Below, in pieces: positions 1,018-16,241 of a stretch of 16,241 bases of DNA (the first letter of the stretch is position 1; the number at the start of each line of letters is the position of its first letter). This stretch comes from a virus. Taxonomy: Duplodnaviria > Heunggongvirae > Uroviricota > Caudoviricetes. The notes below the pieces were generated by a model, which saw only the letters and a list, made by a program, of their open reading frames with translations, made no database searches and was not told where the DNA came from. The DNA is taken from IMG/VR virus record IMGVR_UViG_2778261537_000016, positions 1 through 16,241 of that record; one strand, 5' to 3'. Position numbers and translations under genes: made by a program.

Positions 1018-1047
1018 AAAAAATGCCCTCCTTTTGGAGAGCATTTT

Positions 1048-1067
1048 TACTGTATGTATAAACAGTG
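1048..1067. promoter_or_regulatory. LexA-box-like palindrome TACTGTATGTATAAACAGTG in the ASCH-int intergenic region
   Basis: CTGT (1050-1053), an 8-nt AT-rich spacer, then ACAG (1062-1065). It sits in the 79-bp gap just upstream of the int RBS (AAGGAGG, about 1025-1031) and start (1017). Confidence 0.45.
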
Positions 1068-1096
1068 TCAATATATGATGTTAAGAACCTTATACA

Positions 1097-2531: not shown

Positions 2532-2545
2532 GTCTCATTGAAAAG

Positions 2546-3625
2546 TCATTTTCTAAATTTAATGAAATTTGCGATTATATATAATGCTATTAACGATAGT
2601 GAACCGTAAATAAATAGGTTTTTATCTAAGCTTTCTGTTGGTACAAATTTCATAACAAATGTTATTGCTGCGCCGTAGAAAATGTATGCAAATATTTTGC
2701 TTAGTTTAGATTTCGTGTTTTTAAATTTTACGACGACAGAAAAATCATTAAGTCTCGAATTTATATCATTTGATATTTTCCAATGATATATCATTGGATC
2801 ATGAGACCCGAAAGATACGCCTTTGCTAAAATATTTTGTCCATGTCTCAGACTCTAAAATTCTTGAACCTTTATAATTTGAACCGGATGCGGAACAGTCA
2901 TCAACCATATCGCGGATTATAAAAATATGGCATTTCAAAGGGGTACAAGCGGCGCTAGCAAGAGTTGTGGCTATTTCGGAGGGCAGGTTTCTTTGCTCAT
3001 TAACCCTAAAATCGATGATATCAGACCGCTCAATACTACTCTTAAGGAAGAGATCTTTGGGGTAAAATGTTTTCACTAAAAGACCGATATCTTCTTTATT
3101 AATTTGGACACGGAATCTTAAATAGTGATTACAAGCATCTTCGGAAGAGAGACAATCCTTGAGTTTAAAGGCTAGTAAGGTGCCATTGTGGATTTTTGTT
3201 ATCTTGACTCTATGATCAAGCTCGCCGCCGCTAAATGATAACTTAGTATTAACAACTAAGTCTCCTTTATTGGCGAGCACTAATTTTAAATGTCTACCAT
3301 CTACTGTTTTAGTGTCAATAAGGTATTCATTGAAAACTGCAGTTACGAGATCTCTGCTTGATTCAAGGTTTTCACTAAGATCAGAAAAAAAATTATTTTC
3401 TTTTTCGAATGGTAGGAATATACATATTGCCCCATGCTTAGCAATGGTTTCATCTTCAGGCTTTTTGAATGTGATGCCAAAATCTAAATAGCCAAATTTA
3501 TGAGCGCTTATGTTCCAAAAATTAATATGCAACTCTTCAATGAAATTCTTATGTTCAGAGTTGTAGGTCGAGCCTGAACTACTATGATAATCCCTACACC
3601 CCCAGACCGCAAAACTTCGTGACAT
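2546..3625 (-). CDS. Membrane-anchored hypothetical protein: large N-terminal soluble domain plus C-terminal 2-TM hairpin
   Basis: ORF 2546..3685 (-). Start set at the ATG at 3625 (MSRSFAVWG...), which has AAGGAA about 7 nt upstream and does not overlap the repressor gene. The C-terminus has two hydrophobic helices (IFAYIFYGAAITFVMKF and LFIYGSLSLIALYIIANFI) and ends KFRK. No recognisable catalytic motif. Visibly AT-rich. Confidence 0.55.
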   Translation of the reverse strand: MSRSFAVWGCRDYHSSSGSTYNSEHKNFIEELHINFWNISAHKFGYLDFGITFKKPEDETIAKHGAICIFLPFEKENNFFSDLSENLESSRDLVTAVFNEYLIDTKTVDGRHLKLVLANKGDLVVNTKLSFSGGELDHRVKITKIHNGTLLAFKLKDCLSSEDACNHYLRFRVQINKEDIGLLVKTFYPKDLFLKSSIERSDIIDFRVNEQRNLPSEIATTLASAACTPLKCHIFIIRDMVDDCSASGSNYKGSRILESETWTKYFSKGVSFGSHDPMIYHWKISNDINSRLNDFSVVVKFKNTKSKLSKIFAYIFYGAAITFVMKFVPTESLDKNLFIYGSLSLIALYIIANFIKFRK

Positions 3626-3651
3626 ATCGATTTCCTTTGTCAGTAACGGTT

Positions 3652-4263
3652 TTAATTCAAATTGACCAGTAAGTAAAAATGGCATCGTGCAATTGGGTTT
3701 AGTTCACTGATAAAGCACTCAAATGAATGGCATGGATTGGGTGCTCCAACCTTGACTCTTCCTACAGGTATTCTCGTAAGTTCTCTAATACTCACTTTCC
3801 CTTCTATCTCTACCACCCACTTACCATCGGTCACTTCGTGAAAATGTTGATCAGCTAAATAGAGCTGATCTGAATCCATGATTACGATAGGTTTTCGCAA
3901 AGAATCTGGCACCAACGCTTTGTCGAGTAGGTAAAAATTTGAATCTAATAATTTCCCATCTTTGATTTTTTTTCGAGGTACGGAAAACAAATCAGCAAGA
4001 ACATTTTCATTTGCTGATTGGATACCTAAAGATTTTTGGGGTGGCTTAGGACTCCCAGTTCCAAATGAAAGCCACTCAACTGGGACGCCGGTCTCAATTG
4101 AGCACTTTATTATCCAGTCAGCAGGGAACACGTCTCTCATCCATCTGGTGCTCATCGTGCTTGTTGAAATCCCAAGCCGCTCACAAAGAGCCTTACGAGT
4201 ACTTACTCCGTAGGCCTCAAGCATACGAAGAATAGCCTCACGGCCACCATTGTTAAAATCCAT
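3652..4263 (-). CDS. CI-like immunity repressor (N-terminal HTH)
   Basis: 203 aa. N-terminal HTH-like segment (STRKALCERLGISTSTMSTRWMRD). AAGGAG sits 7 nt upstream of the ATG at 4263. It is divergent from an Apl/Cro-like gene across a promoter/operator region, the same layout as the 186 cI position next to int. No S24 Ser-Lys peptidase motif was seen. Confidence 0.7.
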   Translation of the reverse strand: MDFNNGGREAILRMLEAYGVSTRKALCERLGISTSTMSTRWMRDVFPADWIIKCSIETGVPVEWLSFGTGSPKPPQKSLGIQSANENVLADLFSVPRKKIKDGKLLDSNFYLLDKALVPDSLRKPIVIMDSDQLYLADQHFHEVTDGKWVVEIEGKVSIRELTRIPVGRVKVGAPNPCHSFECFISELNPIARCHFYLLVNLN

Positions 4264-4288
4264 TAATGCTCCTTTGGAACCTTACATG

Positions 4289-4316
4289 TTGACAAACTCC
4301 AAATGAGACGTAATAT
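4289..4316 (+). promoter_or_regulatory. Sigma70-type early (pR-like) promoter, TTGACA-N16-TAATAT
   Basis: TTGACA at 4289-4294 and TAATAT at 4311-4316. It is oriented toward the Apl/Cro-like gene that starts at 4397. Confidence 0.55.
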
Positions 4317-4338
4317 TGCTACTGAAGCTCATTTGGAG
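4297..4338. promoter_or_regulatory. Candidate operator: perfect 11-bp inverted repeat CTCCAAATGAG-N20-CTCATTTGGAG
   Basis: Arms at 4297-4307 and 4328-4338 are exact reverse complements. They bracket the -10 element and the predicted transcription start of the early promoter. Confidence 0.55.
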
Positions 4339-4396
4339 TCTTCACTGTTGAACACCGCTAGACACGGTTTACTTACTTAAAAAGGAATCTTGCATC

Positions 4397-4618
4397 ATGA
4401 CTCCTCACATTTCAATCACGTTGACTGTTCCTTCCGTATCAATTGAAAAATATAGCGAACTTACTGGGCTATCAATTGACACAATCAATGACATGCTAGC
4501 GGATGGCCGCTTGATACGGCACCGCTTACGCAAAGATAAAAAGCGCGAAAAAGTTATGATCAACATTGCGGCTATGACTGTCGATGCGCTCTCAGATTGC
4601 AACGTGTCCATCAATTAG
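4397..4618 (+). CDS. Apl/Cro-like small HTH DNA-binding protein
   Basis: 73-aa ORF, first gene of the rightward operon and divergent from the repressor. HTH-like segment YSELTGLSIDTINDMLADGRL. GGAA lies upstream of the ATG. Confidence 0.6.
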   Translation: MTPHISITLTVPSVSIEKYSELTGLSIDTINDMLADGRLIRHRLRKDKKREKVMINIAAMTVDALSDCNVSIN

Positions 4619-4650
4619 TTCGATTTTGAGACCGACTGAGGGCAATGACT

Positions 4651-5154
4651 ATGTTTGATTATCAAACCTCCAAACATGCGCACTTTGATGCGGCTTGCCG
4701 AGCATTTGCGATTGAGCACAATCTGGAAGATGTGGCCGCTGCTGTTGGCATGAGGCCACAGATCCTGCGCAACAAATTGAATCCAGCACAGCCACACCGT
4801 TTAACCTGTGACGAGCTTTTAGCTATTACGGATTACACCGAAGATGCGCGTTTACTGGATGGAATGCTGGGGCAGATTAACTGCCTTCCATCCGTACCAG
4901 TGAACAATGCCACAGAAGGCAACATGCAGTTGTGCGCACTGAGTGCCACAGCCTGTGTGGGCGCAATTGCTGGGGAAGCCGTATCCACTGGTCATATGAC
5001 CGCCGCCCGCCGTACACAAATTCTGGATCGCGCTCGCGATGCAATCCGTAGCTTATCCGTGCTGGCTTATACCGTTGAAAGCCGTATCCAGTCTGCGCCT
5101 GTTCTGGCCGCAGCGGTGGATTTGGTGACGGCTAACGCCACCGGCTTGATGTGA
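4651..5154 (+). CDS. cII: CII-like lysogeny-establishment regulator (phage 186 CII family)
   Basis: ORF 4645..5154. The sequence MFDYQTSKHAHFDAACRAFA...LRNKLNPAQPH closely resembles my recollection of the 186 CII N-terminus, and the length (167-169 aa) matches. Start is at 4645 or 4651; GAGGG lies just upstream. Confidence 0.7.
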   Translation: MFDYQTSKHAHFDAACRAFAIEHNLEDVAAAVGMRPQILRNKLNPAQPHRLTCDELLAITDYTEDARLLDGMLGQINCLPSVPVNNATEGNMQLCALSATACVGAIAGEAVSTGHMTAARRTQILDRARDAIRSLSVLAYTVESRIQSAPVLAAAVDLVTANATGLM

Positions 5155-5163
5155 GGGAGCACC

Positions 5164-5391
5164 ATGAAAGCGTTTGTTACTTACCTCAAAAAAGAATCAC
5201 CAGCCATGCAACGGCCAAGCGGTTCAACGGGCTGGATAGAACTGCCGAACAGTCAGCGCTGGAATCCTAGCCACACGTATAAATTCAATGCGCATGAGTC
5301 TGTTCGAATGAAAGGCGGGGTGGTTTTACGTTTCTTGCCAACAAAAGTCCGTCGCCTGGTTAGGTGTATAGGGGGGCGCTATGGCAATTAG
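5164..5391 (+). CDS. Hypothetical early protein (75 aa)
   Basis: ORF with a GAGGGA RBS upstream, co-directional and closely spaced within the early operon. No recognisable domain. Confidence 0.4.
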   Translation: MKAFVTYLKKESPAMQRPSGSTGWIELPNSQRWNPSHTYKFNAHESVRMKGGVVLRFLPTKVRRLVRCIGGRYGN

Positions 5392-5809
5392 TCAGGAACA
5401 GCAACAGCGCGGACTGGATCAGATTAAAAAGATTCGCCGCAAATACTTCAATACCAGCAGTGAGGCTGCTGACTGGTGGGACAAATTAACACCGGAATGG
5501 CGCGGGGTAGTTCTCCATGCCGCCGCTGTTAATTCTGGCTTGAGTGTATTCAAAGCCCACTTAAGCAAATGCTGCTGGCGGGAACTGTTTGAGCGTCTGG
5601 ATTACCGGGCAATGATTCAGCTGCGCTGCGGCATTTCCCGTGCGCGTCTGACGATGAATGGATTCGGGTCATTGCGTGACAGTGATTTTTCTAAAAGTAC
5701 CGCGAACCGTCCAATAAAGCGGGCTTATCCAATCAATAACAATCGGGGTCCGCAGATGATTATCGCGCCTCATATCGTCCATAAGTTACAACAACAGGGG
5801 AATCTCTGA
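5381..5809 (+). CDS. Hypothetical early protein (142 aa)
   Basis: ORF with a G-rich RBS (AGGGGGG) upstream. It overlaps the upstream ORF by 11 nt and its stop overlaps the next start. No recognisable domain. Confidence 0.45.
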   Translation: MAISQEQQQRGLDQIKKIRRKYFNTSSEAADWWDKLTPEWRGVVLHAAAVNSGLSVFKAHLSKCCWRELFERLDYRAMIQLRCGISRARLTMNGFGSLRDSDFSKSTANRPIKRAYPINNNRGPQMIIAPHIVHKLQQQGNL

Positions 5810-6210
5810 TGGCCATTATTTCCGTTGAAGGTAAATCGTTAGGGGCTGAGCTGGCCGTGTGGGGCGTTCCACATAATTATGCCGTGGCGTTTGCAGAGAA
5901 AAGCACCAGCAAAAACGGTCGCATTGCGCTGCATCCGTTCTTCTTTAATGACACTGAGCACATGACTAATCCGCGTCACTGGCTGGCAATCAATGCCGCT
6001 TTCTGGTGCTGCGTGTACCGCGAGGCCGAAAGCAAAGAAGCACAGGTTGAAGCGCTGGCTGGGATCCGCGCAATTTTCTACACGGCCGGTGCGTTGGGTG
6101 TTGGCGAAATTAAAGCACTGATCCAGGAGTGGTGGCGGACAACGTACGAGCTGCACCTTATTCCTGCACCGAACCATTCCGCCGTCACTGTACAACCCGC
6201 TTTTCACTAA
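5809..6210 (+). CDS. Hypothetical early protein (133 aa)
   Basis: ORF with an AGGGGA RBS. Its start overlaps the stop of the upstream ORF. No recognisable domain. Confidence 0.45.
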   Translation: MAIISVEGKSLGAELAVWGVPHNYAVAFAEKSTSKNGRIALHPFFFNDTEHMTNPRHWLAINAAFWCCVYREAESKEAQVEALAGIRAIFYTAGALGVGEIKALIQEWWRTTYELHLIPAPNHSAVTVQPAFH

Positions 6211-6278
6211 TTAACAACATGATTTTTTTTGGCCACAGCTTAGGTGGCCGGGGATTCTTTTGCCTTAAGGAAACCAAA

Positions 6279-6512
6279 ATGCACATGACACGTCAGGATT
6301 TACCCGCAACAAAATCAGGCACTGACCTGCTGGCTATGCTCACCCAAGCCACTCAGGAAGGTAAAGCCGCTGCTGCTGATCTGTGTTCCACCCGTCTGGA
6401 TAAGCTGGCCACCCATGCAGCCAATGAAGGTTTAAGCGCAACGGAAATCATTGAGTTAATCCGCGAAGAAGCCGCAGCGATTTGCAGTAAAGGCGGTGCA
6501 GCATGGCAGTAA
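6279..6512 (+). CDS. Hypothetical small protein (about 77 aa)
   Basis: Internal ATG of ORF 6129..6512 with AAGGA 7 nt upstream (MHMTRQDLPATKSG...). The 5' extension to 6129 overlaps the preceding gene and is probably not translated. Its end overlaps the dam start by 10 nt. Confidence 0.45.
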   Translation: MHMTRQDLPATKSGTDLLAMLTQATQEGKAAAADLCSTRLDKLATHAANEGLSATEIIELIREEAAAICSKGGAAWQ

Positions 6513-7372
6513 AAACTCCGCTTAAGTGGGTGGGCAGCAAAGCCCGCCTTATGCCGCAGTTGCTTCCCCATCTGCCAGAGGGTAAGCGCCTGATAGAACC
6601 TTTTGCCGGTTCCTGTGCTGTCATGATGAATACGGATTATGACGAGTATCTGATAGCTGATGTGAATCCTGACCTTGTTAATCTGTATAAGACGATGGCT
6701 TATCACACTGATGCATTGCTCATTGAGCTGGAGGCTTTATTTTCTGCCGGTTCATTAGGTGATGAAGAAAACAGGGCAATTTTCTATTACGCGGTGCGTG
6801 ATGCCTTCAACCAGTCCGGCAAATCCTTTGGTTCTGAATCTGTGGAAGCTGCGGCGCGTTTTCTTTATCTGAATCGTCACTGCTTCAATGGCCTGTGCCG
6901 ATACAATCGCCGTGGTCAGTTCAATGTTCCGTTTGGTAAGTACAAAAAAACCTACTTTCCTGCTGATGAAATCCGCGCTTTTGCAGAAAAAGCGAAACGT
7001 GCAACGTTCATTACTGCCAACTATTCAGAAACGCTTGATTTGGTAAGGGACGGGCATGACGTTGTTTATTGTGATCCGCCTTACCTGACTGATACCGACA
7101 ATTTCACCGCTTACCATGAGCGCGGTTTTTCGCACATGGATCAGGGACGGCTGGCGCGTAAGCTGCGTCGCCTGGCTGAGCGCGGGATTAAGGTTGTCGC
7201 GTCAAACAGCGATCTGGAAATGGTGCATTACCTGTATTCAGGATTCGAAGCGGTTCGGGTCAATGCGCCACGCAGTGTGGGTGCAGCAGCTGCAAGCCAG
7301 AAAGTGGCCGCAGAGCTCATTCTGAAGTCACCTGCTAACCCGGCGATCGACGTTCGGGCGGTGGGGGCATGA
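6503..7372 (+). CDS. dam: DNA adenine N6-methyltransferase, Dam/D12 class
   Basis: 289 aa. Collinear with E. coli Dam motifs: LKWVGSKARL (cf. LKWAGGKYPL), EPFAGS (AdoMet binding), FLYLNRHCFNGLCRYNRRGQFNVPFGKYKK, and catalytic DPPY (VVYCDPPYL). No restriction endonuclease gene is adjacent. Confidence 0.9.
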   Translation: MAVKTPLKWVGSKARLMPQLLPHLPEGKRLIEPFAGSCAVMMNTDYDEYLIADVNPDLVNLYKTMAYHTDALLIELEALFSAGSLGDEENRAIFYYAVRDAFNQSGKSFGSESVEAAARFLYLNRHCFNGLCRYNRRGQFNVPFGKYKKTYFPADEIRAFAEKAKRATFITANYSETLDLVRDGHDVVYCDPPYLTDTDNFTAYHERGFSHMDQGRLARKLRRLAERGIKVVASNSDLEMVHYLYSGFEAVRVNAPRSVGAAAASQKVAAELILKSPANPAIDVRAVGA

Positions 7373-7581
7373 TGACGGAAATTATCACCGGCATTTATGC
7401 CTTGTTTGCCTGTATTACTTTCGCCTTTCTCTTATGGGACGAATGCCAGGACGAATTTGATCACGATGCTGAGGACTTAGGGTTAATCACTCTGAGTGCG
7501 GTTTTTTGGCTACCACTGGTAGCGGCTGTACTTGTGGCTTTCCTGATTGATTTCTGGCGTAAGTGGGTTAACCGTGGTTGA
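7369..7581 (+). CDS. Small predicted membrane protein (70 aa, two TM helices)
   Basis: The start overlaps the dam stop (ATGATGA). Two hydrophobic helices (IITGIYALFACITFAFLLW and LSAVFWLPLVAAVLVAFLIDFW). A GGGGG RBS lies upstream. Confidence 0.5.
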   Translation: MMTEIITGIYALFACITFAFLLWDECQDEFDHDAEDLGLITLSAVFWLPLVAAVLVAFLIDFWRKWVNRG

Positions 7582-7582
7582 T

Positions 7583-9598
7583 ATGCTGGAGCCTGGCCAA
7601 CACCAGACCGTCAATGCCTGGCGGCGTGAAACCTTTGCGCTTGGTACCCCGTCAGATGCAACGATCACAGAACGCCGTTTGTGGGCTGTAAACCCACAGG
7701 ATTATGAATGGCGTTCCCAGTACCTGCATGAAATACCCGACTGGTTAGCCGGGTATTTTGGCAACCGTTACGAAAAGCTGCTGGCTGGTCGTGACGGGCG
7801 TCGCCGTGCCAATACGTTCCTGCGCAAAACTATCGGCGGGAATGTATTGCCACGTCTGCGCAAAGTGGCTGCACGTTACAAACTGGCCGCTGATGCACTT
7901 GATCTTCCTTTCGGTAAGTCGCTGGAGCGACTGCCGTCACTTGACCGCCCGGAACTCAAAAAACTGGCTGGCCAGATATCTGGCTGGATCTCCCAGTCAC
8001 TGTATGACTTTACCGATCAGTTTGTGGGCAGCACTGACGATGCCGCAGAGCTGCGCCGCCGTACGCTGGAGTCTTACCGCCATTTATGCACGTGTTCCCT
8101 GATGCTGAACAATCAACCGCCGTACTGGGCTGAACATGAAGCTAATGGCGGGCAACTGGAAACGCGTAAGGCTGAATCCGGGATCCTCCGCATGATGGCA
8201 CCTGAATGGTGGTATCTGCGTCTTAAGCGGGCGCGGGATATGCAGCGTGAGCATATGGCCATTGCAGTGGGGCAAGTACAGAAAGCGGCCAGCGCTTATG
8301 TGTCCCGTAAAACCTTGGGCGAATGGATAGACCAGAAAAAGCGGAACCTTGAGTTCTTCAAAAAGTTTGACCTGCTGAATGATGAAGGGCTGCGTATTGC
8401 ACTGGACAGCATGGTGCATCGCAGCGTTGCTAATCCGGCGATCCGTCGCTGTGAGCTAATGGTAAGAATGAGAGGATTTGAAGATATGGCCAATGGAGAA
8501 GGACTGGCCGGTGAGTTTTACACCATCACCGCGCCATCGCGATTCCATGCGGTACACAGCAAAGGGGGCTTTGTTTCACAGTGGGATGGCTGCACTCCGC
8601 AGGATACCCAGCGCTACTTATGTGGTGTATGGGCGAAAGCCCGCGCCGCTATTTCCCGTGCAGGTATCCATGTTTTTGGTTTTCGTGTAGTAGAGCCTCA
8701 CCACGATGGCACACCGCACTGGCACATGCTGCTTTTTATGCGTCCTGGTGACGTGGATACCGTGCGCGATATTCTTTGTTATCACGCCAGAATTACTGAC
8801 TCCGAAGAACTGCAAACGCCAAACGCGCTAAAGGCACGTTTCCATGTTGAAGCCATCGATCCCGCTAAAGGCTCGGCTACGGGTTACATAGCCAAATATA
8901 TATCCAAAAACATTGATGGTTTTGCGCTGGATGGTGAACAGGACGACGAAACAGGGGAGAACCTACGGGACATGGCCAAGTCCGTTTCTGCATGGGCTTC
9001 ACGCTGGCGCATTCGCCAGTTTCAGCAGATTGGTGGTGCGCCGGTGACTGTCTGGCGCGAGTTGCGCCGGTTACGTGATCAGGTACTGACTGACCGAAGA
9101 ATGGATTCGGTTCTGGCTGCTGCGGATGTTGGTGACTGGGCGGCGTACACCCAGGCGCAGGGTGGCGCACTGGTTTCCCGCCGTGACCTGGTTGTTCGTC
9201 TGGCTTATGAAATCACGGAACAGGGTAATGAATACGCAGAGGACGTGCAGCGCGTTCAGGGTGTCTATTCTCCATTGGTTCCAGATTCAGCGGTATGTAC
9301 GCGCTTGGTGAAGTGGCAGAAGGTTGCGAAGTTGGCCGAAGCGCCAGCGGAGGCGGGTTTTTCTGGCGGCAGCGCCGCCCCTTGGAGTTCTGTCAATAAC
9401 TGTACGGAGGGTGGAACCCGCAGACGGTTAAAACTGGAATTGCGAAGCCGGGGTTTTGAAGGTTCTGACGATGAAATAGCCATTCTCATGCGGGGCAGTG
9501 GTTTGAGATTTGGCCAGGCGGCGTTGATTTACCGTAATGGCAGGTTACAGGAGACACGAAACGAGCCAATGCACGAGCTGTGGCCGGGGTGGTTGTAG
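7583..9598 (+). CDS. Rolling-circle replication initiator endonuclease (P2 gpA / 186 A family)
   Basis: The ORF tool starts at a TTG at 7547; the first ATG is 7583, directly after the upstream stop. HUH metal-binding motif HHDGTPHWHMLLF and twin active-site tyrosines in GSATGYIAKYISKNIDG, as in P2 A. Length about 670 aa. Confidence 0.85.
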   Translation: MLEPGQHQTVNAWRRETFALGTPSDATITERRLWAVNPQDYEWRSQYLHEIPDWLAGYFGNRYEKLLAGRDGRRRANTFLRKTIGGNVLPRLRKVAARYKLAADALDLPFGKSLERLPSLDRPELKKLAGQISGWISQSLYDFTDQFVGSTDDAAELRRRTLESYRHLCTCSLMLNNQPPYWAEHEANGGQLETRKAESGILRMMAPEWWYLRLKRARDMQREHMAIAVGQVQKAASAYVSRKTLGEWIDQKKRNLEFFKKFDLLNDEGLRIALDSMVHRSVANPAIRRCELMVRMRGFEDMANGEGLAGEFYTITAPSRFHAVHSKGGFVSQWDGCTPQDTQRYLCGVWAKARAAISRAGIHVFGFRVVEPHHDGTPHWHMLLFMRPGDVDTVRDILCYHARITDSEELQTPNALKARFHVEAIDPAKGSATGYIAKYISKNIDGFALDGEQDDETGENLRDMAKSVSAWASRWRIRQFQQIGGAPVTVWRELRRLRDQVLTDRRMDSVLAAADVGDWAAYTQAQGGALVSRRDLVVRLAYEITEQGNEYAEDVQRVQGVYSPLVPDSAVCTRLVKWQKVAKLAEAPAEAGFSGGSAAPWSSVNNCTEGGTRRRLKLELRSRGFEGSDDEIAILMRGSGLRFGQAALIYRNGRLQETRNEPMHELWPGWL

Positions 9599-9676
9599 CC
9601 TCGTAAGTCTGTGATACATCACTGTTTGTCAACGAATAGCAGCAAAAATCACTTTCACATTTTGTGCTTAAATGTA

Positions 9677-9696
9677 TACTGTATGAATATACAGTT
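9677..9696. promoter_or_regulatory. LexA (SOS) box, TACTGTATGAATATACAGTT
   Basis: CTGT-N8-ACAG with an AT-rich spacer, a near-perfect match to the LexA consensus TACTGTATATATATACAGTA. It lies about 20-40 nt upstream of the small ORF at 9714 and its AGGAGG RBS (9708-9713). Confidence 0.75.
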
Positions 9697-9713
9697 ATTC
9701 TGTTTTTAGGAGG

Positions 9714-9932
9714 ATGCTTGTGCAGGATTTGTTTATGGAAACTATCGCATTGCAGCGGATTGCGTTGTTTACCAGGTTGATCGCCAAAAGTAATTGCACT
9801 GGCTGTGAAAAGGACATTGCACTTGCCTGGCTAAGCGAGCTGACTTCAGATCTGGAAAGTAAACTTGATGAATATGAAAGTAAAAACCCCCGGGAAGGGG
9901 GCTTATCAGGCGGCGGGAGTCGCTTTCAGTAG
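9714..9932 (+). CDS. SOS-controlled small protein at the tum position (candidate Tum-like antirepressor)
   Basis: 72-aa ORF just downstream of the LexA box and a strong AGGAGG. That RBS abuts the ATG at 9714, so the GTG at 9720 may be the real start. In 186 the LexA-repressed tum gene sits downstream of A in the same place. No sequence homology to Tum was verified, and the ORF runs through the convergent terminator and overlaps the ogr-like 3' end. Confidence 0.4.
   Translation: MLVQDLFMETIALQRIALFTRLIAKSNCTGCEKDIALAWLSELTSDLESKLDEYESKNPREGGLSGGGSRFQ
9882..9902 (-). terminator. Rho-independent terminator for the ogr-like gene
   Basis: On the minus strand a GC hairpin (GCCCCC-TTCCC-GGGGG) is followed by TTTTT, immediately after the ogr-like stop at 9906-9908. 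Confidence 0.6.
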
Positions 9933-10175
9933 GTCTAATGCCATTTGACGCTGATCGGGTGACAGTGCATTCAGTATTTTCTGCACCATAGCATCACCCG
10001 TTTTCGCGCTGGGGCTGAGAGTGTGGGAGAACGTCAGATTCATCACAAACGTATGGCCACACTCAACATCTGAACAGGCGCAGTAAATATCCGCAATCTG
10101 CCGGTGCTTCCGGTTTGTGTTACGAATAACAGCCTTTGAGCCGCATTCCGGGCATTCGATTTTCAGAACTCGCAT
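9906..10175 (-). CDS. Ogr/Delta-family zinc-finger late-gene transcription activator
   Basis: ORF 9906..10229 (-). The internal ATG at 10175 gives MRVLKIECPECGSKAV...YCACSDVECGHTF, matching the Ogr pattern CxxC-x22-24-C-x4-C followed by TF (compare P2 Ogr CPLCQ...CQNVNCSATF). GGAG lies upstream. Confidence 0.75.
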   Translation of the reverse strand: MRVLKIECPECGSKAVIRNTNRKHRQIADIYCACSDVECGHTFVMNLTFSHTLSPSAKTGDAMVQKILNALSPDQRQMALDLLKATPAA

Positions 10176-10225
10176 ATTCCATGCTCCAGCTGTTAAATGA
10201 TGCCTGGATTTTAGCCTTTTTCGCC

Positions 10226-11287
10226 TCATGCCGCACCCTTATCCGTTGATTCTGTGTAACTTAAATCAAAGTTAAGGTGCAGCCTTTCCGGTATTTCGGG
10301 ATCGTTGTTCACCGCAGTCATAAACCGGCGCTGAATGGGTGCTATTTCGCTTTTCTTGTAAATCCTTTCCGCCTTTTCAACATCCCCCAGGCCGGCAGTG
10401 TTCTGCGGGACAATTCCGGCCAGCCCTGCGGGAAAGCGGTGTGCGTTGAGAATGTCCTGTGCGCTGATGTTTTTGATGTTGGCAAATTCATCTTTTGCAG
10501 AGATATCCCCCATTTCAATAAACTTGATCGCATCCCCATCCCCGCCTGGAATGTTCACCAGAATGGTGGAGAAGTTGCCGATACCTTTGCTGTCCCGCAG
10601 CTGCTGTTCAATCTCTTCTTCCATTTCATCCGTCATGCTGGGATCGCGCGTGTAGAGAATGCCGCCAGTATGGGCGCCGTTGTGGTAGTAACGGCGGCGA
10701 AAAATCACGGCTTCACTGTTAAGCAATGCCGAGTGTACGCCGCCGATATAGTCGGGCAGCCCGTAAATATGCTGCTGCGGGTCGTACATCTTGATAAAAA
10801 TGATATCTTCTTGCGGCCATACCTGCGGTTCACCGTCCTGCAATACCACATAATCGCCGGGCTGGTCTGCGGCGTTGTCCCTGACTTTACGGCGGCGAAT
10901 ATACAGGCCGGGTAAAGGTTCCAGGGCAATCACATCTCCCCATCCGTTGCGGATTTTGCCAATCGCAATATCCCCGAAGGTTGTATAGTCAAACGCTGCG
11001 GCTTCCAACTGGTCGTAAGTCAGGCCACCGCCCAGATAATCAGACACAATCATATTTTTCCGGGCGTGGATAATGCCGCCATGCTGACCGTTCAGATTGA
11101 TAAGCTGTGCCAGTGCCAGCCGGTCAATCGGCTGGGTAAAGTGATCGGCGGCATTGTCGTACCAGATGTCGCGGTAATCCGTGCCGGTGGTCAGGACGGG
11201 TTCCGGTTTGCCGAATGTGATGATGCTCATTTTTTTGGATTTATCGCCGCGCGGGTTGCGCTTAACGAAGCGGTTTTTTTTACTCAT
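10226..11287 (-). CDS. Portal protein (P2 gpQ family)
   Basis: 353 aa. Collinear with P2 Q as I recall it: MSKK..., ITFGKPEPVL (cf. FTFGEPVPVL), LNSEAVIFRRRYYHNGAHTG (cf. LNESATLFRRKYYENGAHAG), LRDSKGIGNF, KDEFANIKNISAQDILNAHRFP, GLGDVEKA. Its start overlaps the terminase stop by 4 nt. Confidence 0.9.
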   Translation of the reverse strand: MSKKNRFVKRNPRGDKSKKMSIITFGKPEPVLTTGTDYRDIWYDNAADHFTQPIDRLALAQLINLNGQHGGIIHARKNMIVSDYLGGGLTYDQLEAAAFDYTTFGDIAIGKIRNGWGDVIALEPLPGLYIRRRKVRDNAADQPGDYVVLQDGEPQVWPQEDIIFIKMYDPQQHIYGLPDYIGGVHSALLNSEAVIFRRRYYHNGAHTGGILYTRDPSMTDEMEEEIEQQLRDSKGIGNFSTILVNIPGGDGDAIKFIEMGDISAKDEFANIKNISAQDILNAHRFPAGLAGIVPQNTAGLGDVEKAERIYKKSEIAPIQRRFMTAVNNDPEIPERLHLNFDLSYTESTDKGAA

Positions 11288-12441
11288 GCAGCCTCTTTCC
11301 TTACACCCCAGCGGGATTTCGGTTTATTTTCGTAGTTGAGTGGTTCGTTATGCAGGGCGTGGGTAATTGCCCAGAACGCCTCTGCGTGGCCAGTGTCCTG
11401 GCTGCGGTCAGCGACAAATGTCATGGCGTTACCACTTTGCGTGGTGGTGCGGCGTACAGCCATAAAGCTGGCCGGGATCTCTTTCAGGTTCTTGTCCCAT
11501 TCAATACGCTGACTTTCCACCACGTCCGCCGCTTTCAGTACCAGCTGATTTTTCGTGTTCATGTCGTAACGAATGGCGACGGCCACGCGCATGGCAAAAT
11601 GCTGGATGTTGTCAAAAACACCCTGGCCAATACCGGTAACGTCCACTCCCAGATAGGTGAAGTTGTATTTTTTAAACAGGAGTTCGATCTGCCTGGCCTG
11701 ATAGCGGAAGTTCATGCCCTTCCAGTTAATGACCTTCAGAACGCGGAATTTCTCTGCGGCATACATCGGCGGGGCAATAATCACAAAACACGACAAATCG
11801 CCGCTACGTGCCGGGTCAAAGCCTCCCCATACTGGCCTGTCACCGAATGGCCGCGCAGCGTCCGGGTTGTGATCCTGCCAGGTGTCCACCTCCACGCCGC
11901 AGGCTTCCAGGTCTGAAAAGCTGAATACGGAATCCTTGCTGTCCACGAAGACGCACATATAGAGCATGTTGAAGGTGGCCGTGTTGTAGCGGTTGCGCAG
12001 CTTCTCGATGTTGGCCAGGTTGAAGCCACCTGCAATGGCATCCTCCATCGTGATGACATAGCGCCACTGCCCATCCGGGCAAAGCCGTCCGCCGTCGCGC
12101 ATGTCATCAAAAGACGGGAACTGGGCGGCCGCGCGTTTTTTGCTGCCCTGTTTCCATTCCTCACCCGTCCAGAACGGGTAAGCCTGGTGCGTTTTGGCCG
12201 ATGGTGTTGAAAAGTAGGTGGTGCGCCATTTGTCATGGGTGGCCATTGCGCTGGCCACTTCGTTAAGCCTGGCGAAGTTAGGCACCCAGAAATATTCGTC
12301 ACAGTACAGGTGGCCACTGTAGGACTGGGCTGTGTTCTTGTTGGTTGAGAGAAAACGCAGTTCAGCGCCGTTGCTGAGGCGGATCGGGTTGCCGGTCAGC
12401 GTTATGCCAAAATACTGTTCTGCAATGTTGACGATGTAAGA
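11284..12441 (-). pseudogene. Terminase large subunit (P2 gpP family), 5'-truncated; N-terminal region including the expected Walker A is absent
   Basis: ORF 11284..12285 plus an in-frame open extension upstream. The translation (...NGAELRFLSTNKNTAQSYSGHLYCDEYFWVPNFARLNEVASAMATHDKWRTTYFSTPS...) matches the central and C-terminal part of P2 P, including a Walker-B-like YCDEYFW. The frame hits a stop at about 12472-12474 with no ATG and no Walker A, and AT-rich non-coding DNA follows. Confidence 0.75.
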
Positions 12442-12517
12442 TAGGATGTACCGTTTTTTAAAAACAACTAGTTATACACTTTGTGGGAGCCTATTGGGAA
12501 CCTGAAGTTTTGCTCTT

Positions 12518-12537
12518 TCTATTCATATCTATTCATA
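12518..12537. repeat. Perfect tandem direct repeat TCTATTCATA x2
   Basis: Read directly at 12518-12527 and 12528-12537, in the AT-rich spacer between the truncated terminase and the next module. Confidence 0.6.
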
Positions 12538-12562
12538 AAGCACCATTTGCTGCCTTATCTGA

Positions 12563-12589
12563 TTGACCAAAAACAACCGCGGTTATAGA
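12563..12589 (+). promoter_or_regulatory. Candidate sigma70 promoter (TTGACC ... TATAGA) for the 12645 operon
   Basis: TTGACC at about 12563-12568 and a TATAGA-like -10 about 15-17 bp downstream. GAGG RBS lies 5 nt before the ATG at 12645. Weak call by eye. Confidence 0.3.
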
Positions 12590-12644
12590 CTTTGCTCCAA
12601 ATAGCTAAGGCTATTGCTTAGTAAGTAAAACAGTTGAGGTTGCC

Positions 12645-13184
12645 ATGAATCCGTTTAACGCCATTACTTTTGCTGCATTGTGCGGGCCTCTGGCTTGTCC
12701 TGCTGCTATGGCGCAGGAGTTCATCATCCAGCCAGCCCCTGTGATTGCTAAACCTTTTGAGTACTCTCCTTCTGTTGAGGAATTCTCACGCAGAATGGAA
12801 GAGGGTAAGGAGATCTTGCAAAAGTTAACAATTGCAGCAGATGACTACTATATCTGTTTGATTGATCTTAATAGCCAAGATGCTCGCGAGTTTGTTTCCA
12901 AAAACGGGACAGATACGACAGAGGCATGCGAAATGTTCCTGCGTGCTTTTGAAGAAGAAGTGAAGCGTACAATTGAATCGCCTCTGCCTGAATTTATCAG
13001 GTCAGAACTGAAGGTTTACTGGCGTCATATTGCTAAAGCTCGCTCATCTGTCACTCGCCTTAACAATTACATAAAGAGCATATTTAAAGAAACTGTTACG
13101 TTTAGCGGGCGCGCGGATCTTGCTGGAATTGCAGCACTAGCTAGTCACACATCAAATAAGCTAAAATCGATGCAATTTCACTAA
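12645..13184 (+). CDS. Hypothetical protein with signal-peptide-like N-terminus (179 aa); upstream partner of the YafO-like gene
   Basis: N-terminus MNPFNAITFAALCGPLACPAAMA/QE is hydrophobic with an AxA-type cleavage site but lacks a positively charged n-region. The rest is charged and helical with no recognisable domain. GAGG RBS. Stop is 16 nt before the next gene. Confidence 0.5.
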   Translation: MNPFNAITFAALCGPLACPAAMAQEFIIQPAPVIAKPFEYSPSVEEFSRRMEEGKEILQKLTIAADDYYICLIDLNSQDAREFVSKNGTDTTEACEMFLRAFEEEVKRTIESPLPEFIRSELKVYWRHIAKARSSVTRLNNYIKSIFKETVTFSGRADLAGIAALASHTSNKLKSMQFH

Positions 13185-13200
13185 CCGATAGCGGACGACC

Positions 13201-13635
13201 ATGCATCTAGAAGTCTCTATTAATCCAGAAACTAGAGCTGAATTTTTTGATGAAGTTTTTCTCAAATTCCCGGAGCTAGAGTCTTCTATCATTGATGATT
13301 TCAAGAGATACAAAGCAACCGGTGAGCTTCCGCATTATTTCGGTAGGGACGTTGCGTATACTCAGCCCTATGGTGCTTTTCGGGCTGGGTTGATGCATAT
13401 CCATCTTTGTCTACCGCCAAACAAGTTTCCCGAGAAACTTCCACAACCGGATAGGGTCTGCAAGAAAGGTGATCCTGATAATGATGCTTGTCTTGTGTAT
13501 GTCCAAGGTGAGCTTTATGAGAATAAATATTCACTCATTGCTATTATGTATCCCGATGCACATGAAAAAGCAAGAAAACATGATGTGATGAGCTATCTGG
13601 CGCGAATTGCCCAGAATTATAAAGATGAAAACTAA
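13201..13635 (+). CDS. YafO-family type II toxin-like protein (ribosome-dependent mRNA interferase family)
   Basis: 144 aa. Collinear with E. coli YafO as I recall it: YK..G.LP..FGRD..Y, HIHL, D.A(C/H)LVY.QG, LIAI..P..H..AR. The gene is followed immediately by a strong terminator. Confidence 0.6.
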   Translation: MHLEVSINPETRAEFFDEVFLKFPELESSIIDDFKRYKATGELPHYFGRDVAYTQPYGAFRAGLMHIHLCLPPNKFPEKLPQPDRVCKKGDPDNDACLVYVQGELYENKYSLIAIMYPDAHEKARKHDVMSYLARIAQNYKDEN

Positions 13636-13655
13636 CCCGCCGAAGCGGGTTTTTT
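13636..13655 (+). terminator. Rho-independent terminator (CCCGC-CGAA-GCGGG followed by TTTTTT)
   Basis: Perfect 5-bp GC stem with a tetraloop and a T6 run, directly after the stop at 13635. It lies between convergent genes and may also act on the minus strand. Confidence 0.8.
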
Positions 13656-13661
13656 GTGAGA

Positions 13662-13934
13662 TTAGTTATTTATTTTCCTATTTGTTCTTACCCTCTCCCA
13701 TTCAATTCTGCCTTCTTCACGCCGTTTATCTATATATTCAGCAAGATCCTGAATGTTGATGCAGCGCTTTGCTTTCTGTGATGTACCAACACGATAAGTC
13801 GGGATCGGCAATTGGCATGCATTTGCTTTCGCTTCTGCTGTGTTAGGGCTCATACCGAAATACTTTTGGCATACAGCTGACAGCTCAATGTTTGGGGTAT
13901 TGAATTCAGCCATCAGTAAAAACAAGGTGTTCAT
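13662..13934 (-). CDS. PrtN-family (pyocin activator-like) transcriptional regulator
   Basis: ORF 13662..13961 (GTG per the ORF tool); the ATG at 13934 has GGAG upstream. The sequence FGMSPNTAEAKANACQLPIPTYRVGTSQKAKRCINIQDLAEYID matches the conserved PrtN core as I recall it. Confidence 0.65.
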   Translation of the reverse strand: MNTLFLLMAEFNTPNIELSAVCQKYFGMSPNTAEAKANACQLPIPTYRVGTSQKAKRCINIQDLAEYIDKRREEGRIEWERVRTNRKINN

Positions 13935-13970
13935 AATTTTCTCCATCAAAACCGGCTGCACCCGGGAAAA

Positions 13971-14543
13971 TCATAATTCTGTGCTGGTGGCAGGAATTAG
14001 TTTCTGCCAGATAGCGGAAACATATTTTGCCTGATGACGGGCATCAGCCAGGGCGTTGTGCCGTTCGCCATCGAAAGGCATGTCCATTTTTGGGTCGAAT
14101 CCGATGGAACGCCCAAGCGTAACGATCGTGCGTACATCGTGGTCATTCCAGTACGCCCACGGGCAGATTTGTCCTGCTCGCTCGTAAGCTCCACGTAAAA
14201 TTACGTTGTCGAAGGTGGCCCCGTTACCCCAGACTTTTAAATATTTTGTATTGTCTGCATGCTGATTAATGAAATGGCTCAGTTCAGAGAGTGCATCGCT
14301 GATCGACAAAGTATCATCAATACAGATTGCAGCTCGTGCTTCAGAGCTCTGTTTCAACCACCACAGGATGGTATCGCCGTCAGGTGTAGCTCCTTGCTTC
14401 ATAGCACTGTCCAGGCTAACAACCGTATAGAATTCTTGTCCGATGTCTCCGGTTTCTGGAGTGAAGAACACCGCGCCAATGGAAACGATCGGTGCATCCT
14501 TATTTTTCCCCATCGTCTCAAGGTCGATCATTAAGTTGTTCAT
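13971..14543 (-). CDS. DnaQ-like 3'-5' exonuclease (DEDDh family)
   Basis: Exo I motif IDLETMG, Exo II WGNGATFD, Exo III HNALADA. The ATG at 14543 has a GAGGTGA RBS; the ORF tool's 14546 is a GTG. Its start overlaps the upstream stop by 1 nt. Confidence 0.8.
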   Translation of the reverse strand: MNNLMIDLETMGKNKDAPIVSIGAVFFTPETGDIGQEFYTVVSLDSAMKQGATPDGDTILWWLKQSSEARAAICIDDTLSISDALSELSHFINQHADNTKYLKVWGNGATFDNVILRGAYERAGQICPWAYWNDHDVRTIVTLGRSIGFDPKMDMPFDGERHNALADARHQAKYVSAIWQKLIPATSTEL

Positions 14544-15352
14544 CACTTCACCTCTTGTGATGGTTTTGCTGCAAAATACTCGATACCTTTATCCCAGATA
14601 GATTTTATGGTCGACCACGTGACTGGCACTTTAATTTCAATACGTCCGCTCCCGTCACAGGTATCGCAATCATCATCGCCAAAGCATTCCAGGCAGCTTA
14701 TAAACGTAGTTTCTGAAAATTCACCGGATAGCGCCCCCTTAGCGCCGTTCTCGGCTGTTAGTCTCTTCGGCACCATAACCCAACCATCCGGAGTTACCGG
14801 AGAGTTGCCAGACAGTGCGTTCTGCAATCGTTCCAGCTTAACGTATTCCTGAACCCTGTTTCCGTCGCACGCCTGAAGCCATTGCACAGCCTTTTGCGCA
14901 TCAGTGTGAAAGGCACAAGTGCGACCGTCATCAAATTGCATTTCGTAGAGGTCAGCAACCTGTTTAAACTGCGTTTGTGGCAACTTGTAAGCCTGGCTTG
15001 CAGGTACGGCACCATAGAGCATGGCAGCGCGGCAGGCGTTCCAGCCTTCATCAAAACCGACTATGCCATTATTTAAAGACGGACGAGCATCTGGCACCAC
15101 CGGCACTGGCTTGGCTATATATAGCGGCTGAACATACCAGCCCTTTGATAACCAACTGTCAGCAATGTTTTTACTCCTGGTTATTGCCGGAATACCTAAG
15201 CCATTGTCTGAATGCAGCCATGCCACCGGATCCTCTTCCAGCGATGCCAGAGCAATTTCATAAGCACGGCGCTCAACATTGTCTCGCACGTCCATGCTGC
15301 TGATTCGTTCTTTGATTTCTTTAATCAGTTCTTTATCGGTAAATGTGGTCAT
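14543..15352 (-). CDS. Hypothetical prophage early protein (269 aa) with a C-terminal Cys-rich motif
   Basis: Operon member with coupled start and stop. C-terminal CLECFGDDDCDTCDGSGRIE resembles a small zinc-ribbon (CxxC...CxxC). No other motif recognised. Confidence 0.55.
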   Translation of the reverse strand: MTTFTDKELIKEIKERISSMDVRDNVERRAYEIALASLEEDPVAWLHSDNGLGIPAITRSKNIADSWLSKGWYVQPLYIAKPVPVVPDARPSLNNGIVGFDEGWNACRAAMLYGAVPASQAYKLPQTQFKQVADLYEMQFDDGRTCAFHTDAQKAVQWLQACDGNRVQEYVKLERLQNALSGNSPVTPDGWVMVPKRLTAENGAKGALSGEFSETTFISCLECFGDDDCDTCDGSGRIEIKVPVTWSTIKSIWDKGIEYFAAKPSQEVK

Positions 15353-15714
15353 TATGCTCCAGCCTCCGGTGCTTTTGGCATTACTGCCCAGTGAGTGATG
15401 TTGACGTTTTCAAGGTCCCCGACCTGAAATGTCCACTGCCATTCTCCGGTTTCTTTTTGCCCCCATGTATACCAGAGAGAACGCCAGCCAATCAGCCAGC
15501 CTTCTCCATTAGCATCAAATAACAGAACACTTTCATTCGCTGGCGGCAGTTCAGCTGACACTGGTATTACTTTGTTTTCCAGTGCTGCACATTTAGCTTC
15601 AAGCGCATTAAATTTACGCACCAGGTATTCAGCATCCGTTTCATTCACTTTCAGATCTCGCGGTACACATTTCCCGCGAAGAAATCCTTCCATTTCGAAA
15701 ACATTCATGCGCAT
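15352..15714 (-). CDS. Hypothetical prophage early protein (120 aa)
   Basis: ORF with GGAG upstream of the ATG at 15714. Trp-rich C-terminal half (GWLIGWRSLWYTWGQKETGEWQW). It overlaps the upstream gene by 10 nt. Confidence 0.5.
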   Translation of the reverse strand: MRMNVFEMEGFLRGKCVPRDLKVNETDAEYLVRKFNALEAKCAALENKVIPVSAELPPANESVLLFDANGEGWLIGWRSLWYTWGQKETGEWQWTFQVGDLENVNITHWAVMPKAPEAGA

Positions 15715-16241
15715 TTGCGTAACTCCGATAATTCGTTAAAGCGTTCCATAAACATCCCGTAGGCATGGCCTGGAGCCAGTGGAATCACGTTGAACATCTC
15801 TGTTGCCGGGATACCTTCCAGTACAGGCCAGAAAGAGCCATCATCAAGCCCGAGATCGCGGCGTTCGGTTGCCAGCATGATGAGATCGGCATATTTCACG
15901 GGCGTACTCATAACCGGTGGTAACCCGTATTTCTCACGGATTACGGCGTCTATTTTTTCTTCCATCCGTTTATAGTCAGGAAGAAGGCGTTTCAGTGGTG
16001 CGGGAATGTCCTGGCAATACGCTTCTGTTGCATCATGCATTAACGCTTCAAAAGCAAATTCCTGCGGCACCAGCTGGCTGCAAAGAACCGCATGTTGGGC
16101 GACGCTGTAGAAGTGCGAAAGATGACCGGCAAAGCGACAGATATTTGAAAGGGAAACCGCGATATCGTTAATATCGATGTCGTCTTTATTTATCCTGTCA
16201 TAATAAAAATGCTTCCCGGAAAAAGTTTTAATAAATGACAT
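15705..16241 (-). CDS. HD-domain phosphohydrolase, YfdR-like 5'-deoxynucleotidase
   Basis: 178-aa ORF whose ATG is at the window edge (16239-16241). HD-domain signature (H...HD...D): SVAQHAVLCSQL, ALMHDATEAYCQDIP, ADLIMLATERRDLG. Length and N-terminus match my recollection of E. coli prophage YfdR. The upstream promoter is outside the window. Confidence 0.7.
   Translation of the reverse strand: MSFIKTFSGKHFYYDRINKDDIDINDIAVSLSNICRFAGHLSHFYSVAQHAVLCSQLVPQEFAFEALMHDATEAYCQDIPAPLKRLLPDYKRMEEKIDAVIREKYGLPPVMSTPVKYADLIMLATERRDLGLDDGSFWPVLEGIPATEMFNVIPLAPGHAYGMFMERFNELSELRKCA

Follow-up and report, generated by a model that had tools for sequence, protein, structure and literature searches.

YafO is among the least understood of the RelE/ParE-type toxins. 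In Escherichia coli K-12, its gene belongs to the dinB-yafNO operon, which is SOS-regulated. A Pfam-based review has placed YafO among the RelE/ParE-superfamily toxins with the BECR fold, and ribosome dependence is disputed even for the K-12 protein (PMC11980606). YafO toxins whose partners are unknown appear in surveys (PMC3141249, PMC10790755), a YafO from a Pseudomonas prophage has been listed as a lone toxin ("toxin alone") (PMC10449497), and a toxin–antitoxin screen of Photorhabdus lists YafO as a toxin class (PMC13617665). Here, we analyzed a phage-borne yafO-like gene and the gene upstream of it, hereafter the partner, in a 16,241-nt stretch of DNA from a virus of the Caudoviricetes (positions 1 to 16,241 of IMG/VR record IMGVR_UViG_2778261537_000016); this whole stretch is referred to as the window. 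On balance, we lean towards reading the pair as a type II-like toxin–antitoxin module with a new antitoxin family, in which an N-terminal peptide would control the fate of the antitoxin. An earlier reading of the letters without database searches (the sequence-only reading) had offered a new antitoxin class, a periplasmic immunity protein, or a two-component abortive-infection module, and of these we rank the new antitoxin class first.

Conserved linkage of the gene pair

The sequence-only reading had placed two genes 16 nt apart, and both were confirmed as open reading frames (ORFs) on the + strand, with the 16-nt gap lying between the stop codon of the partner and the toxin gene:

12645..13184, + strand: partner gene, an ORF of 179 aa with an ATG start, assigned to PHROG 8416; candidate antitoxin
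13201..13635, + strand: YafO-family toxin gene, an ORF of 144 aa matching PF13957
12636..12639, + strand: Shine-Dalgarno sequence GAGG of the partner gene, read from the sequence, 5 nt before the ATG

The stretch GAGGTTG before the ATG was kept in related loci. Homologues of both genes were under purifying selection in many genera, so the pair does not consist of chance ORFs. When the surroundings of the partner were analyzed, it was located 3–20 nt upstream of a PF13957 toxin gene in all 50 loci examined (16/16 from genomes and phages, and 34/34 from IMG/VR), the spacing being 13–18 nt in the 34 viral contigs. The hosts covered nine genera, i.e., Escherichia, Enterobacter, Phytobacter, Pantoea, Yersinia, Providencia, Photorhabdus, Gilliamella, and, through its phages, Pseudomonas, and nearly all the loci were accessory ("moron") insertions in prophages. 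The linked partners diverged to 16% identity, in Gilliamella, with profile E-values reaching 3.5e-4; the wide family alignment was too diverged to serve as a seed and was not used in the locus scans. The sequence-only reading had left room for the upstream protein being a known, unrelated periplasmic protein with no genetic link to the toxin elsewhere; the partner did not correspond to any known periplasmic protein, and the link was present at every one of these loci.

The distance matrices of partners and toxins were correlated (Mantel r 0.67, p 2e-4), and the partner diverged faster than the toxin (mean distance 0.73 vs 0.48), as is typical of antitoxins. Since the linkage was held across unrelated contexts and the distances were correlated, the pair is a single mobile functional unit and not a product of the prophage junction that lies nearby in the window (see below). 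Shortened toxin genes exist within the subfamily, and one orphan partner (L027, 2501..2914) was found on a chromosome, among HxlR, hydrolase, and AlkZ-like genes, with residues 1–47 absent and no toxin gene downstream; this may be an eroded module that has retained part of the partner. Both observations fit the usual decay of toxin–antitoxin modules. A further locus, L028, was considered as a natural knock-out and set aside as uninformative, with frameshifts throughout both genes in a noisy assembly.

The toxin

The product of the second gene had been called YafO-like in the sequence-only reading, and a profile search agreed with this, giving a match to PF13957 (YafO_toxin) of 76.5 bits against a gathering cut-off of 25, with an E-value of 1.9e-21 over profile positions 1–100 of 101. 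It shared 36% identity with K-12 YafO over 117 aa. The score with the NCBIfam YafO equivalog NF007377 was 75.8 bits, about half of the cut-off of 153 and thus below it, and the subfamily corresponds to PHROG 1651. Judged from its sequence, the toxin is a member of the YafO family that belongs to a separate subfamily, not an orthologue of E. coli YafO. The motifs DF..YK, FG.D (FGRD), H.H (HIHL), Q..R, L.Y (LVY), P..H, and M were identical in 12 diverse toxins and in K-12 YafO, and an alignment of 39 toxin sequences contained 21 invariant columns. The protein is a single domain of 144 aa, with no presequence and no fused delivery or secretion domain, and it carries an extra N-terminal insertion of ~12 residues when compared with K-12 YafO. 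Several toxin genes across the loci have GTG or TTG starts and weak ribosome-binding sites.

The AlphaFold2 model of the toxin was confident, with a predicted local distance difference test (pLDDT) of 95.1 and a predicted template modeling score (pTM) of 0.90. When this model was compared with PDB by Foldseek, the top matches were HigB2, YoeB, HigB1, RelE, and ParE, all of the RelE/ParE type and all weak; the best of them, HigB2, was itself a weak match, with an E-value of 4.6e-3, a probability of 0.97, and template modeling (TM) scores of 0.40–0.52. No solved structure of the YafO family was detected by a sequence search of PDB. Though weak, the fold matches agree with the published placement of YafO among the BECR-fold toxins (PMC11980606). 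The label "ribosome-dependent" should not be assumed for the window toxin, because it is unsettled for K-12 YafO (PMC11980606).

The partner protein

The partner fell within PHROG 8416 (E 5e-86), to which no function is assigned, and it gave no significant match in Pfam, NCBIfam, or PADLOC and no match in PDB. A word-indexed search of 5.8 billion proteins retrieved 22 partner clusters at 90% identity, all from Enterobacterales, and an exhaustive profile search of 1.84 billion representative proteins retrieved 23 clusters at 50% identity with E-values up to 1e-3. Save for a few fragments and one over-extended call, the clusters were mostly of 155–205 aa. As far as sequence comparison goes, the partner defines a very small family of uncharacterised helical proteins, of which it is the founding member, and our literature search found no paper characterising it. 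The yafM gene of E. coli K-12 is not known to be related to it. In the GenBank records of phages PhiR40_1 (PV340560.1, 222..761; L002) and PhiR55_1 (PV340571.1), the partner is labelled "YafM antitoxin" without evidence, and this label is likely misleading.

According to the sequence-only reading, the partner was not of the YafN/RelB type and was twice as long, and both points held. There was no match to PF02604, BLASTP against YafN gave an E-value of 0.24 over 22 residues only, and hhalign of the 47-member partner family with 47 YafN homologues returned a probability of 3.5%; the partner has 179 aa, compared with 97 aa in YafN. A hidden YafN-like motif, with partner residues 32–53 aligned to the C-terminal region of YafN (VEEFSRRMEE vs LEEITRRAEQ), was rejected as a chance similarity on that hhalign result. 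The AlphaFold2 model of the partner (pLDDT 79.9) was all-alpha, with a helix at residues 6–24, a low-confidence linker at 25–43, and a five-helix bundle at 44–175. The first of these parts is encoded within the following segment:

12645..12716, + strand: signal-peptide-like segment MNPFNAITFAALCGPLACPAAMAQ, partner codons 1–24, the best-conserved part of the protein

Within the close family, pairwise identity was 0.85 in the N-terminal peptide and 0.55 in the helical domain, and in the whole family it was 0.35 and 0.30, respectively, with 0.15 in the linker. The DNA differences between species in codons 1–24 were mostly synonymous, indicating that the constraint on this peptide acts on the protein and not on the DNA. 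In the window, the N-terminus reads MNPFNAITFAALCGPLACPAAMA and then, after the putative cleavage point, QEF; it contains a hydrophobic core with no K or R ahead of it, and Pro occupies position −5 and Ala both −3 and −1. A peptide conserved beyond the mature part, together with the lack of a basic residue in the window clade, appears unusual for a plain signal peptide. Two other explanations of this region were discarded. A lipoprotein was rejected because the cysteines located towards the end of the hydrophobic stretch (VPSIDC, SIGC, STSC, and VFSC) fit no lipobox consistently, and an internal start at Met22, which would give a cytoplasmic isoform, has no Shine-Dalgarno sequence and is not conserved beyond the close clade.

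A variant of the E. coli-type partner (P0001, with 136 member sequences) carries PLSTLLLLRNSSRK in place of PFEYSPSVEEFSRR at residues 38–51. The replacement left the length as it was and would fit a double frameshift in the linker, the second shift compensating for the first, which suggests that the segment tolerates drastic change.

Promoter region and palindromes

The upstream region contains these features:

12441..12644, + strand: cassette leader, from the left end of the lambdoid prophage to the partner ATG, with the promoter and palindromes inside; recognised by similarity, from 12440, to dusA-linked E. coli prophages, PhiR40_1, and PhiR55_1
12563..12591, + strand: sigma-70-like promoter TTGACC-17-TAGACT, from a consensus scan with 9/12 matches, which by itself does not rise above shuffled sequence
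12573..12586, no strand: palindrome 1, ACAAC-CGCG-GTTAT, between the −35 and −10 hexamers; candidate operator
12601..12614, no strand: palindrome 2, ATAGC-TAAG-GCTAT, just 3' of the −10 hexamer; candidate operator or 5'-terminal RNA hairpin

The promoter-proximal part of the leader could be aligned with the Phytobacter, Enterobacter, and Pantoea cassettes. That the pair has its own candidate promoter, as proposed in the sequence-only reading, was borne out, the scan result notwithstanding, by conservation across genera: the −35/−10 block (TTGCTC ... TATTAAACT or TATTAGACT) was found in Phytobacter, Enterobacter, Pantoea, HK639, and several viral contigs. Written through, the palindromes of the promoter region are ACAACCGCGGTTAT and ATAGCTAAGGCTAT. 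An exact ACAAC-N4-GTTGT was present upstream of the Yersinia and Providencia cassettes, in unrelated flanking DNA, and ATAGC-N4-GCTAT was present in Gilliamella, Phytobacter, and the viral contig L047 at an equal distance to the start codon. The Pantoea-type cassettes had the symmetric variant ATAAC-N4-GTTAT, and the Serratia-like ones TTCAAC..GTTGAA instead. In total, palindromes at or near the promoter were found in 7 of 14 loci, with symmetric variation between clades. The pattern AYARC-N4-GYTRT occurred nine times in 2.05 kb of upstream sequence and twice in 93.8 kb elsewhere, a comparison whose significance is overstated because the pattern was chosen post hoc.

A conserved promoter of its own and clade-specific palindromes that travel with the cassette look like cassette-specific regulation. 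Because the palindromes accompany the cassette in unrelated contexts, they suggest that it encodes a DNA-binding activity, and this sits uneasily with complete export of the partner. The promoter-proximal palindromes were also considered as Int/Xis arm sites of attL, and this was rejected because they recur in tail-gene insertions of unrelated prophages.

Farther upstream, the repeat AAAAACAAC(N2-4)GTTATA(C/G)AC occurs twice, 111 nt apart (segments 12460..12479, 12518..12537, and 12570..12591 are involved), and a perfect tandem of two copies of TCTATTCATA lies between two copies of the AAAAACAAC repeat. The distal AAAAACAAC copy and the tandem are common to the Phytobacter locus only; they may therefore belong to attL, as sites for integrase, Xis, or IHF, and not be operators of the cassette.

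Proposed function and alternatives

As a toxin–antitoxin module, the pair would be a self-contained, mobile, and bicistronic moron of temperate phages. The free toxin would act as an endoribonuclease of the RelE/ParE superfamily that cuts mRNA and halts translation, and the ~135-residue helical bundle of the partner would bind and neutralise it; the partner, possibly together with the toxin, may also repress the operon at the promoter palindromes. The conserved N-terminal hydrophobic peptide, joined to the bundle through the variable linker, would set the fate of the toxin-free antitoxin, which could be exported through Sec, become associated with the membrane, or be recognised by a protease or chaperone, and any of these outcomes would supply the instability that a toxin–antitoxin module requires. 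When synthesis stops, upon phage takeover or prophage loss, newly made or released toxin would then act, and the benefit could be abortive-infection defence of the lysogen against other phages, stabilisation of the prophage, or both.

We took the partner as the antidote because an intact YafO RNase moving between hosts needs one, and the partner is the sole other conserved gene. The co-variation of partner and toxin, the faster divergence of the partner, and the order of antitoxin and then toxin agree with the evolution expected of a toxin–antitoxin pair. The phage-borne YafO subfamily always travels with one specific and unnamed partner family, and this makes the partner a candidate antidote for such orphan toxins listed as "toxin alone". 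The cassette is compact, of ~1.2 kb, and clonable, and it occurs in the cultured phages HK639, PhiR40_1, and YMC11/02/R656. If the partner is indeed an antitoxin, its export-type presequence would represent a new control of antitoxin level or location.

Several observations weigh against this interpretation. No similarity between the partner and known antitoxins was found, and, as the sequence-only reading had anticipated, no DNA-binding domain was recognisable in it by family searches or in its all-alpha predicted structure; none was recognisable in the toxin either. The hydrophobic, signal-like start described in that reading proved to be a property of the family. Under a crude rule, which asked for 9 consecutive uncharged residues averaging 1.5 or more in hydropathy and, after them, a small-x-small site, a signal-like N-terminus was found in 46 of 49 family members, compared with 17% of control ORFs. 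In the typical member, a hydrophobic core of 9–12 residues precedes a Pro near −5 or −6, and positions −3 and −1 are taken by small residues; AMA/Q, ALA/E, TLA/Q, VLA/R, ASA/Q, and GMA/Q are examples of the putative cleavage sites (the slash marks the cleavage point). The window protein and 27 of the 49 members have a net charge of 0 before the core; the other members have +1 to +3, and these include the Providencia, Photorhabdus, Pseudomonas-phage, and HK639 branches. Clearly canonical versions of the signal were found in Pseudomonas and Providencia members, and examples of this type are MARTKVPFSKVAMLSLALSVSTSCA followed by Q, MKTTLSICAAALSMALSSPNVLA followed by R, and MKAIKMILAALATGVATVPS. 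Such a presequence is odd for the antidote to a toxin that works inside the cell, and a partner that was efficiently exported and cleaved could not sequester a cytoplasmic RNase. Moreover, a markedly basic toxin and a strongly acidic partner are not the rule here, and the isoelectric point (pI) of the toxin is near neutral or acidic in many members. Finally, the palindromes may act as RNA hairpins or be bound by factors of the host or of a phage.

Among the alternatives, the one that survives best, and which we regard as unlikely though serious, takes the partner as a Sec-exported periplasmic or envelope protein that does not bind the toxin stably, and the pair as a two-component defence or exclusion module. 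In one version, an envelope sensor would work with a cytoplasmic RNase effector; in the other, an export-failure switch would operate, in which unexported precursor, after perturbation of the membrane or Sec by a phage, alters the RNase activity. The n/h/c architecture and signal-peptidase-type small-x-small sites found family-wide, canonical cases included, speak for this possibility, as does a partner devoid of recognisable antitoxin-like or DNA-binding domains, and strict linkage suits any two-part machine equally. The moron slots occupied by the cassette, such as the P22 sieA slot in L019, the site beside ParDE in Yersinia, and the end of a prophage (see below), are also places that house superinfection-exclusion and defence genes. 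A truly periplasmic partner would make the pair a defence module of an unusual kind, with an envelope component and an RNase. However, the YafO RNase would then be left with no antidote in the cassette, even though the cassette moves among hosts that lack yafN. It is not obvious how a soluble periplasmic protein would signal to the cytoplasm, and the hydrophobic core, which has 9–12 residues and includes Gly and Pro, lacks the length needed to anchor the protein stably in a membrane. In addition, the mature part is less conserved than the peptide, an atypical pattern for a signal peptide, the window clade has no basic residue before the core, the promoter palindromes suggest a cytoplasmic DNA binder encoded by the cassette, and neither protein matches a PADLOC model.

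A more specific form of the toxin–antitoxin module would combine export with neutralisation, and we hold it as speculative and rather improbable. Here, the instability of the antitoxin would come from protein export and not from proteolysis or, equivalently, the cytoplasmic level of the precursor would report on Sec and membrane function. Partner in complex with the toxin would remain cytoplasmic and keep the operon repressed, and free partner would be removed through Sec by means of its unusually conserved presequence. If phage attack then blocked synthesis or the envelope, the balance would tip and the YafO RNase would be freed. If true, this would be a cytoplasmic toxin–antitoxin switch coupled to the secretion machinery without a dedicated chaperone gene.

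It is quite improbable that the YafO-like protein has been domesticated or is inactive and requires no antidote, in which case the two genes would encode non-toxic accessory proteins of the phage that are co-expressed. A score of only half the NCBIfam equivalog cut-off, the near-neutral or acidic pI of many members, and the N-terminal insertion of ~12 residues would be in keeping with an inert protein, but all the motifs in common with K-12 YafO were invariant or nearly so in the 39 sequences, and the natural truncations of toxin genes in the subfamily suggest that the toxin has a cost.

Slightly less probable still is that the antidote comes from the host, or from an RNA or an unannotated small ORF located in 12441..13660, and that the partner plays an unrelated role. 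The 205-nt leader with its repeats and palindromes and the antisense ORFs within the toxin gene would offer room for such an element. Across the divergent cassettes, however, no small ORF or leader sequence was conserved save for the promoter block and the short palindromes, and no Rfam family was matched above threshold, so that an RNA antitoxin or known small RNA was rejected. The hosts are too diverse for one common factor, and a 47-aa ORF annotated upstream of the pair in PhiR40_1 spans the junction position and is disrupted in the window.

That the genes are unrelated neighbours joined by a prophage junction, as their position 205 nt from the junction of two different prophages might suggest, is refuted by the intact pair in 50/50 other loci and in 48 E. 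coli genomes without this junction.

Genomic context

In the window, the pair lies close to a junction at 12440/12441. The left side (4341..12440) is an ESSI-2/P2-like prophage, with ~86% identity, that ends inside the large terminase gene, and the right side (12441..16241) is the attL end of a lambdoid prophage that adjoins dusA in 48 complete E. coli genomes. In those 48 genomes, the cassette is flanked by a dusA 5' fragment and the excisionase gene, and the similarity to them starts at 12440, as it does with PhiR40_1 and PhiR55_1. The junction itself was absent from all 5,426 complete E. coli genomes searched, and it looks like the result of one prophage having inserted into, or recombined with, another. 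The sequence-only reading had put the pair exactly at the junction of two prophage remnants; the junction is real, and the pair begins 205 nt to the right of it as ordinary cargo of the right-hand prophage. The junction is thus incidental, and the cassette is an ordinary end-of-prophage moron of that prophage.

The 65 nt at 12441..12505 were ~97% identical to segments of the otherwise unrelated phages Lys8385Vzw, SKA5, and 1720a-02, and in one of these the segment is annotated as tRNA-dihydrouridine synthase. The segment probably represents an att-proximal arm conserved among phages that integrate in dusA.

At its downstream end, the cassette is closed by the following feature:

13634..13657, both strands: bidirectional intrinsic terminator AACCCGCCGAAGCGGGTT plus T-run, from a terminator scan; overlaps the stop codon of the toxin gene

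The stem, at 13634..13651, has 7 bp with 5 G-C pairs and is followed by TTTTTTGTGA, and the strong terminator proposed in the sequence-only reading is therefore present. It is common to the toxin gene and to the convergent excisionase/PrtN-family gene at 13662..13961 on the − strand (PHROG 1300). The Rfam scan of the region gave one match only, to isrK, with 19.6 bits against a threshold of 50, and this sat on the terminator.

Elsewhere, the cassette was found in varied surroundings. The Phytobacter, Enterobacter, and two Pantoea loci were on genome contigs, the Providencia locus was in a prophage, and the cassette was flanked by tail and baseplate genes in Photorhabdus and by tail-fibre and lysis genes in Gilliamella. 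In Yersinia mollaretii (L013, 1328..3438), it was in a P2-like prophage, with the tail tube gene on one side and the tape-measure gene on the other, directly after ParD-ParE and a second ParD fragment, a site that resembles a toxin–antitoxin hot spot within the tail operon. In a P22-like prophage (L019), it was flanked by gene 16 and arc/ant (immI region), which in the gene order of P22 is the sieA slot, and in another prophage it was near the cI repressor and ant genes. One further locus was chromosomal, with gntP and marC on either side, and two short metagenomic contigs contained the pair with no flanking context.

Among cultured phages, the pair was identified as gp17-gp18 of HK639 (L025, 1920..2938) and gp093-gp092 of Pseudomonas phage YMC11/02/R656 (L026, 1950..2941), with family-profile E-values for the partner of 1.8e-48 and 8.9e-16, respectively. 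Both partners are annotated as hypothetical only, and they were missed by tblastn and found by the family profile. The cassette is also carried by the cultured phage PhiR40_1.

Comparison with known systems

The closest described system is yafN-yafO of E. coli K-12. The window pair has a toxin of the same family, PF13957 (36% identity, with FGRD, HIHL, Q..R, and P..H in common), and the same gene order with a gap of a few nt. It differs in the partner, which is unrelated to YafN (Phd/YefM, PF02604), has 179 instead of 97 aa, is all-helical in the predicted structure, and starts with a signal-like N-terminus, and in its setting, since the window module is phage-borne with its own promoter, whereas yafNO is directly downstream of dinB in K-12. 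With the RelE/ParE (BECR-fold) modules higBA2, yefM-yoeB, and relBE, the pair shares the organisation as a small bicistronic operon and a toxin model that matches HigB2, YoeB, HigB1, RelE, and ParE, but these fold matches are weak (E 4.6e-3, TM ~0.4–0.5), and none of the antitoxins of these modules resembles the partner.

When compared with polymorphic toxin/immunity pairs of contact-dependent inhibition (CDI), type VI secretion system (T6SS), or bacteriocin systems, the toxin is not fused to a delivery domain and the partner is upstream, not downstream. In PADLOC-DB v2, no defence family was matched by either protein at E-values up to 0.1. The superinfection-exclusion proteins P22 SieA, HK97 gp15, and Cor-type lipoproteins occupy the same niche, i.e., moron slots with their own promoter and terminator, and the partner has in common with them a predicted N-terminus of the export type; they are, however, single envelope proteins without an RNase partner, and no sequence or fold similarity linked the partner to them in the PHROG and PDB comparisons.

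In the literature searched, we came across neither antitoxins with a signal-like presequence nor exported antitoxins. In toxin–antitoxin–chaperone (TAC) modules, a hydrophobic extension of the antitoxin makes it depend on a SecB-like chaperone. TAC systems are mentioned in the review cited above (PMC11980606), and the window pair differs from them in that no third, SecB-like gene is conserved at any locus and the appendage is N-terminal and presequence-like, not a C-terminal chaperone-addiction segment. The likeness is one of concept only: in both cases, a putative antitoxin would carry a conserved hydrophobic appendage, possibly tied to the secretion or chaperone machinery of the cell.

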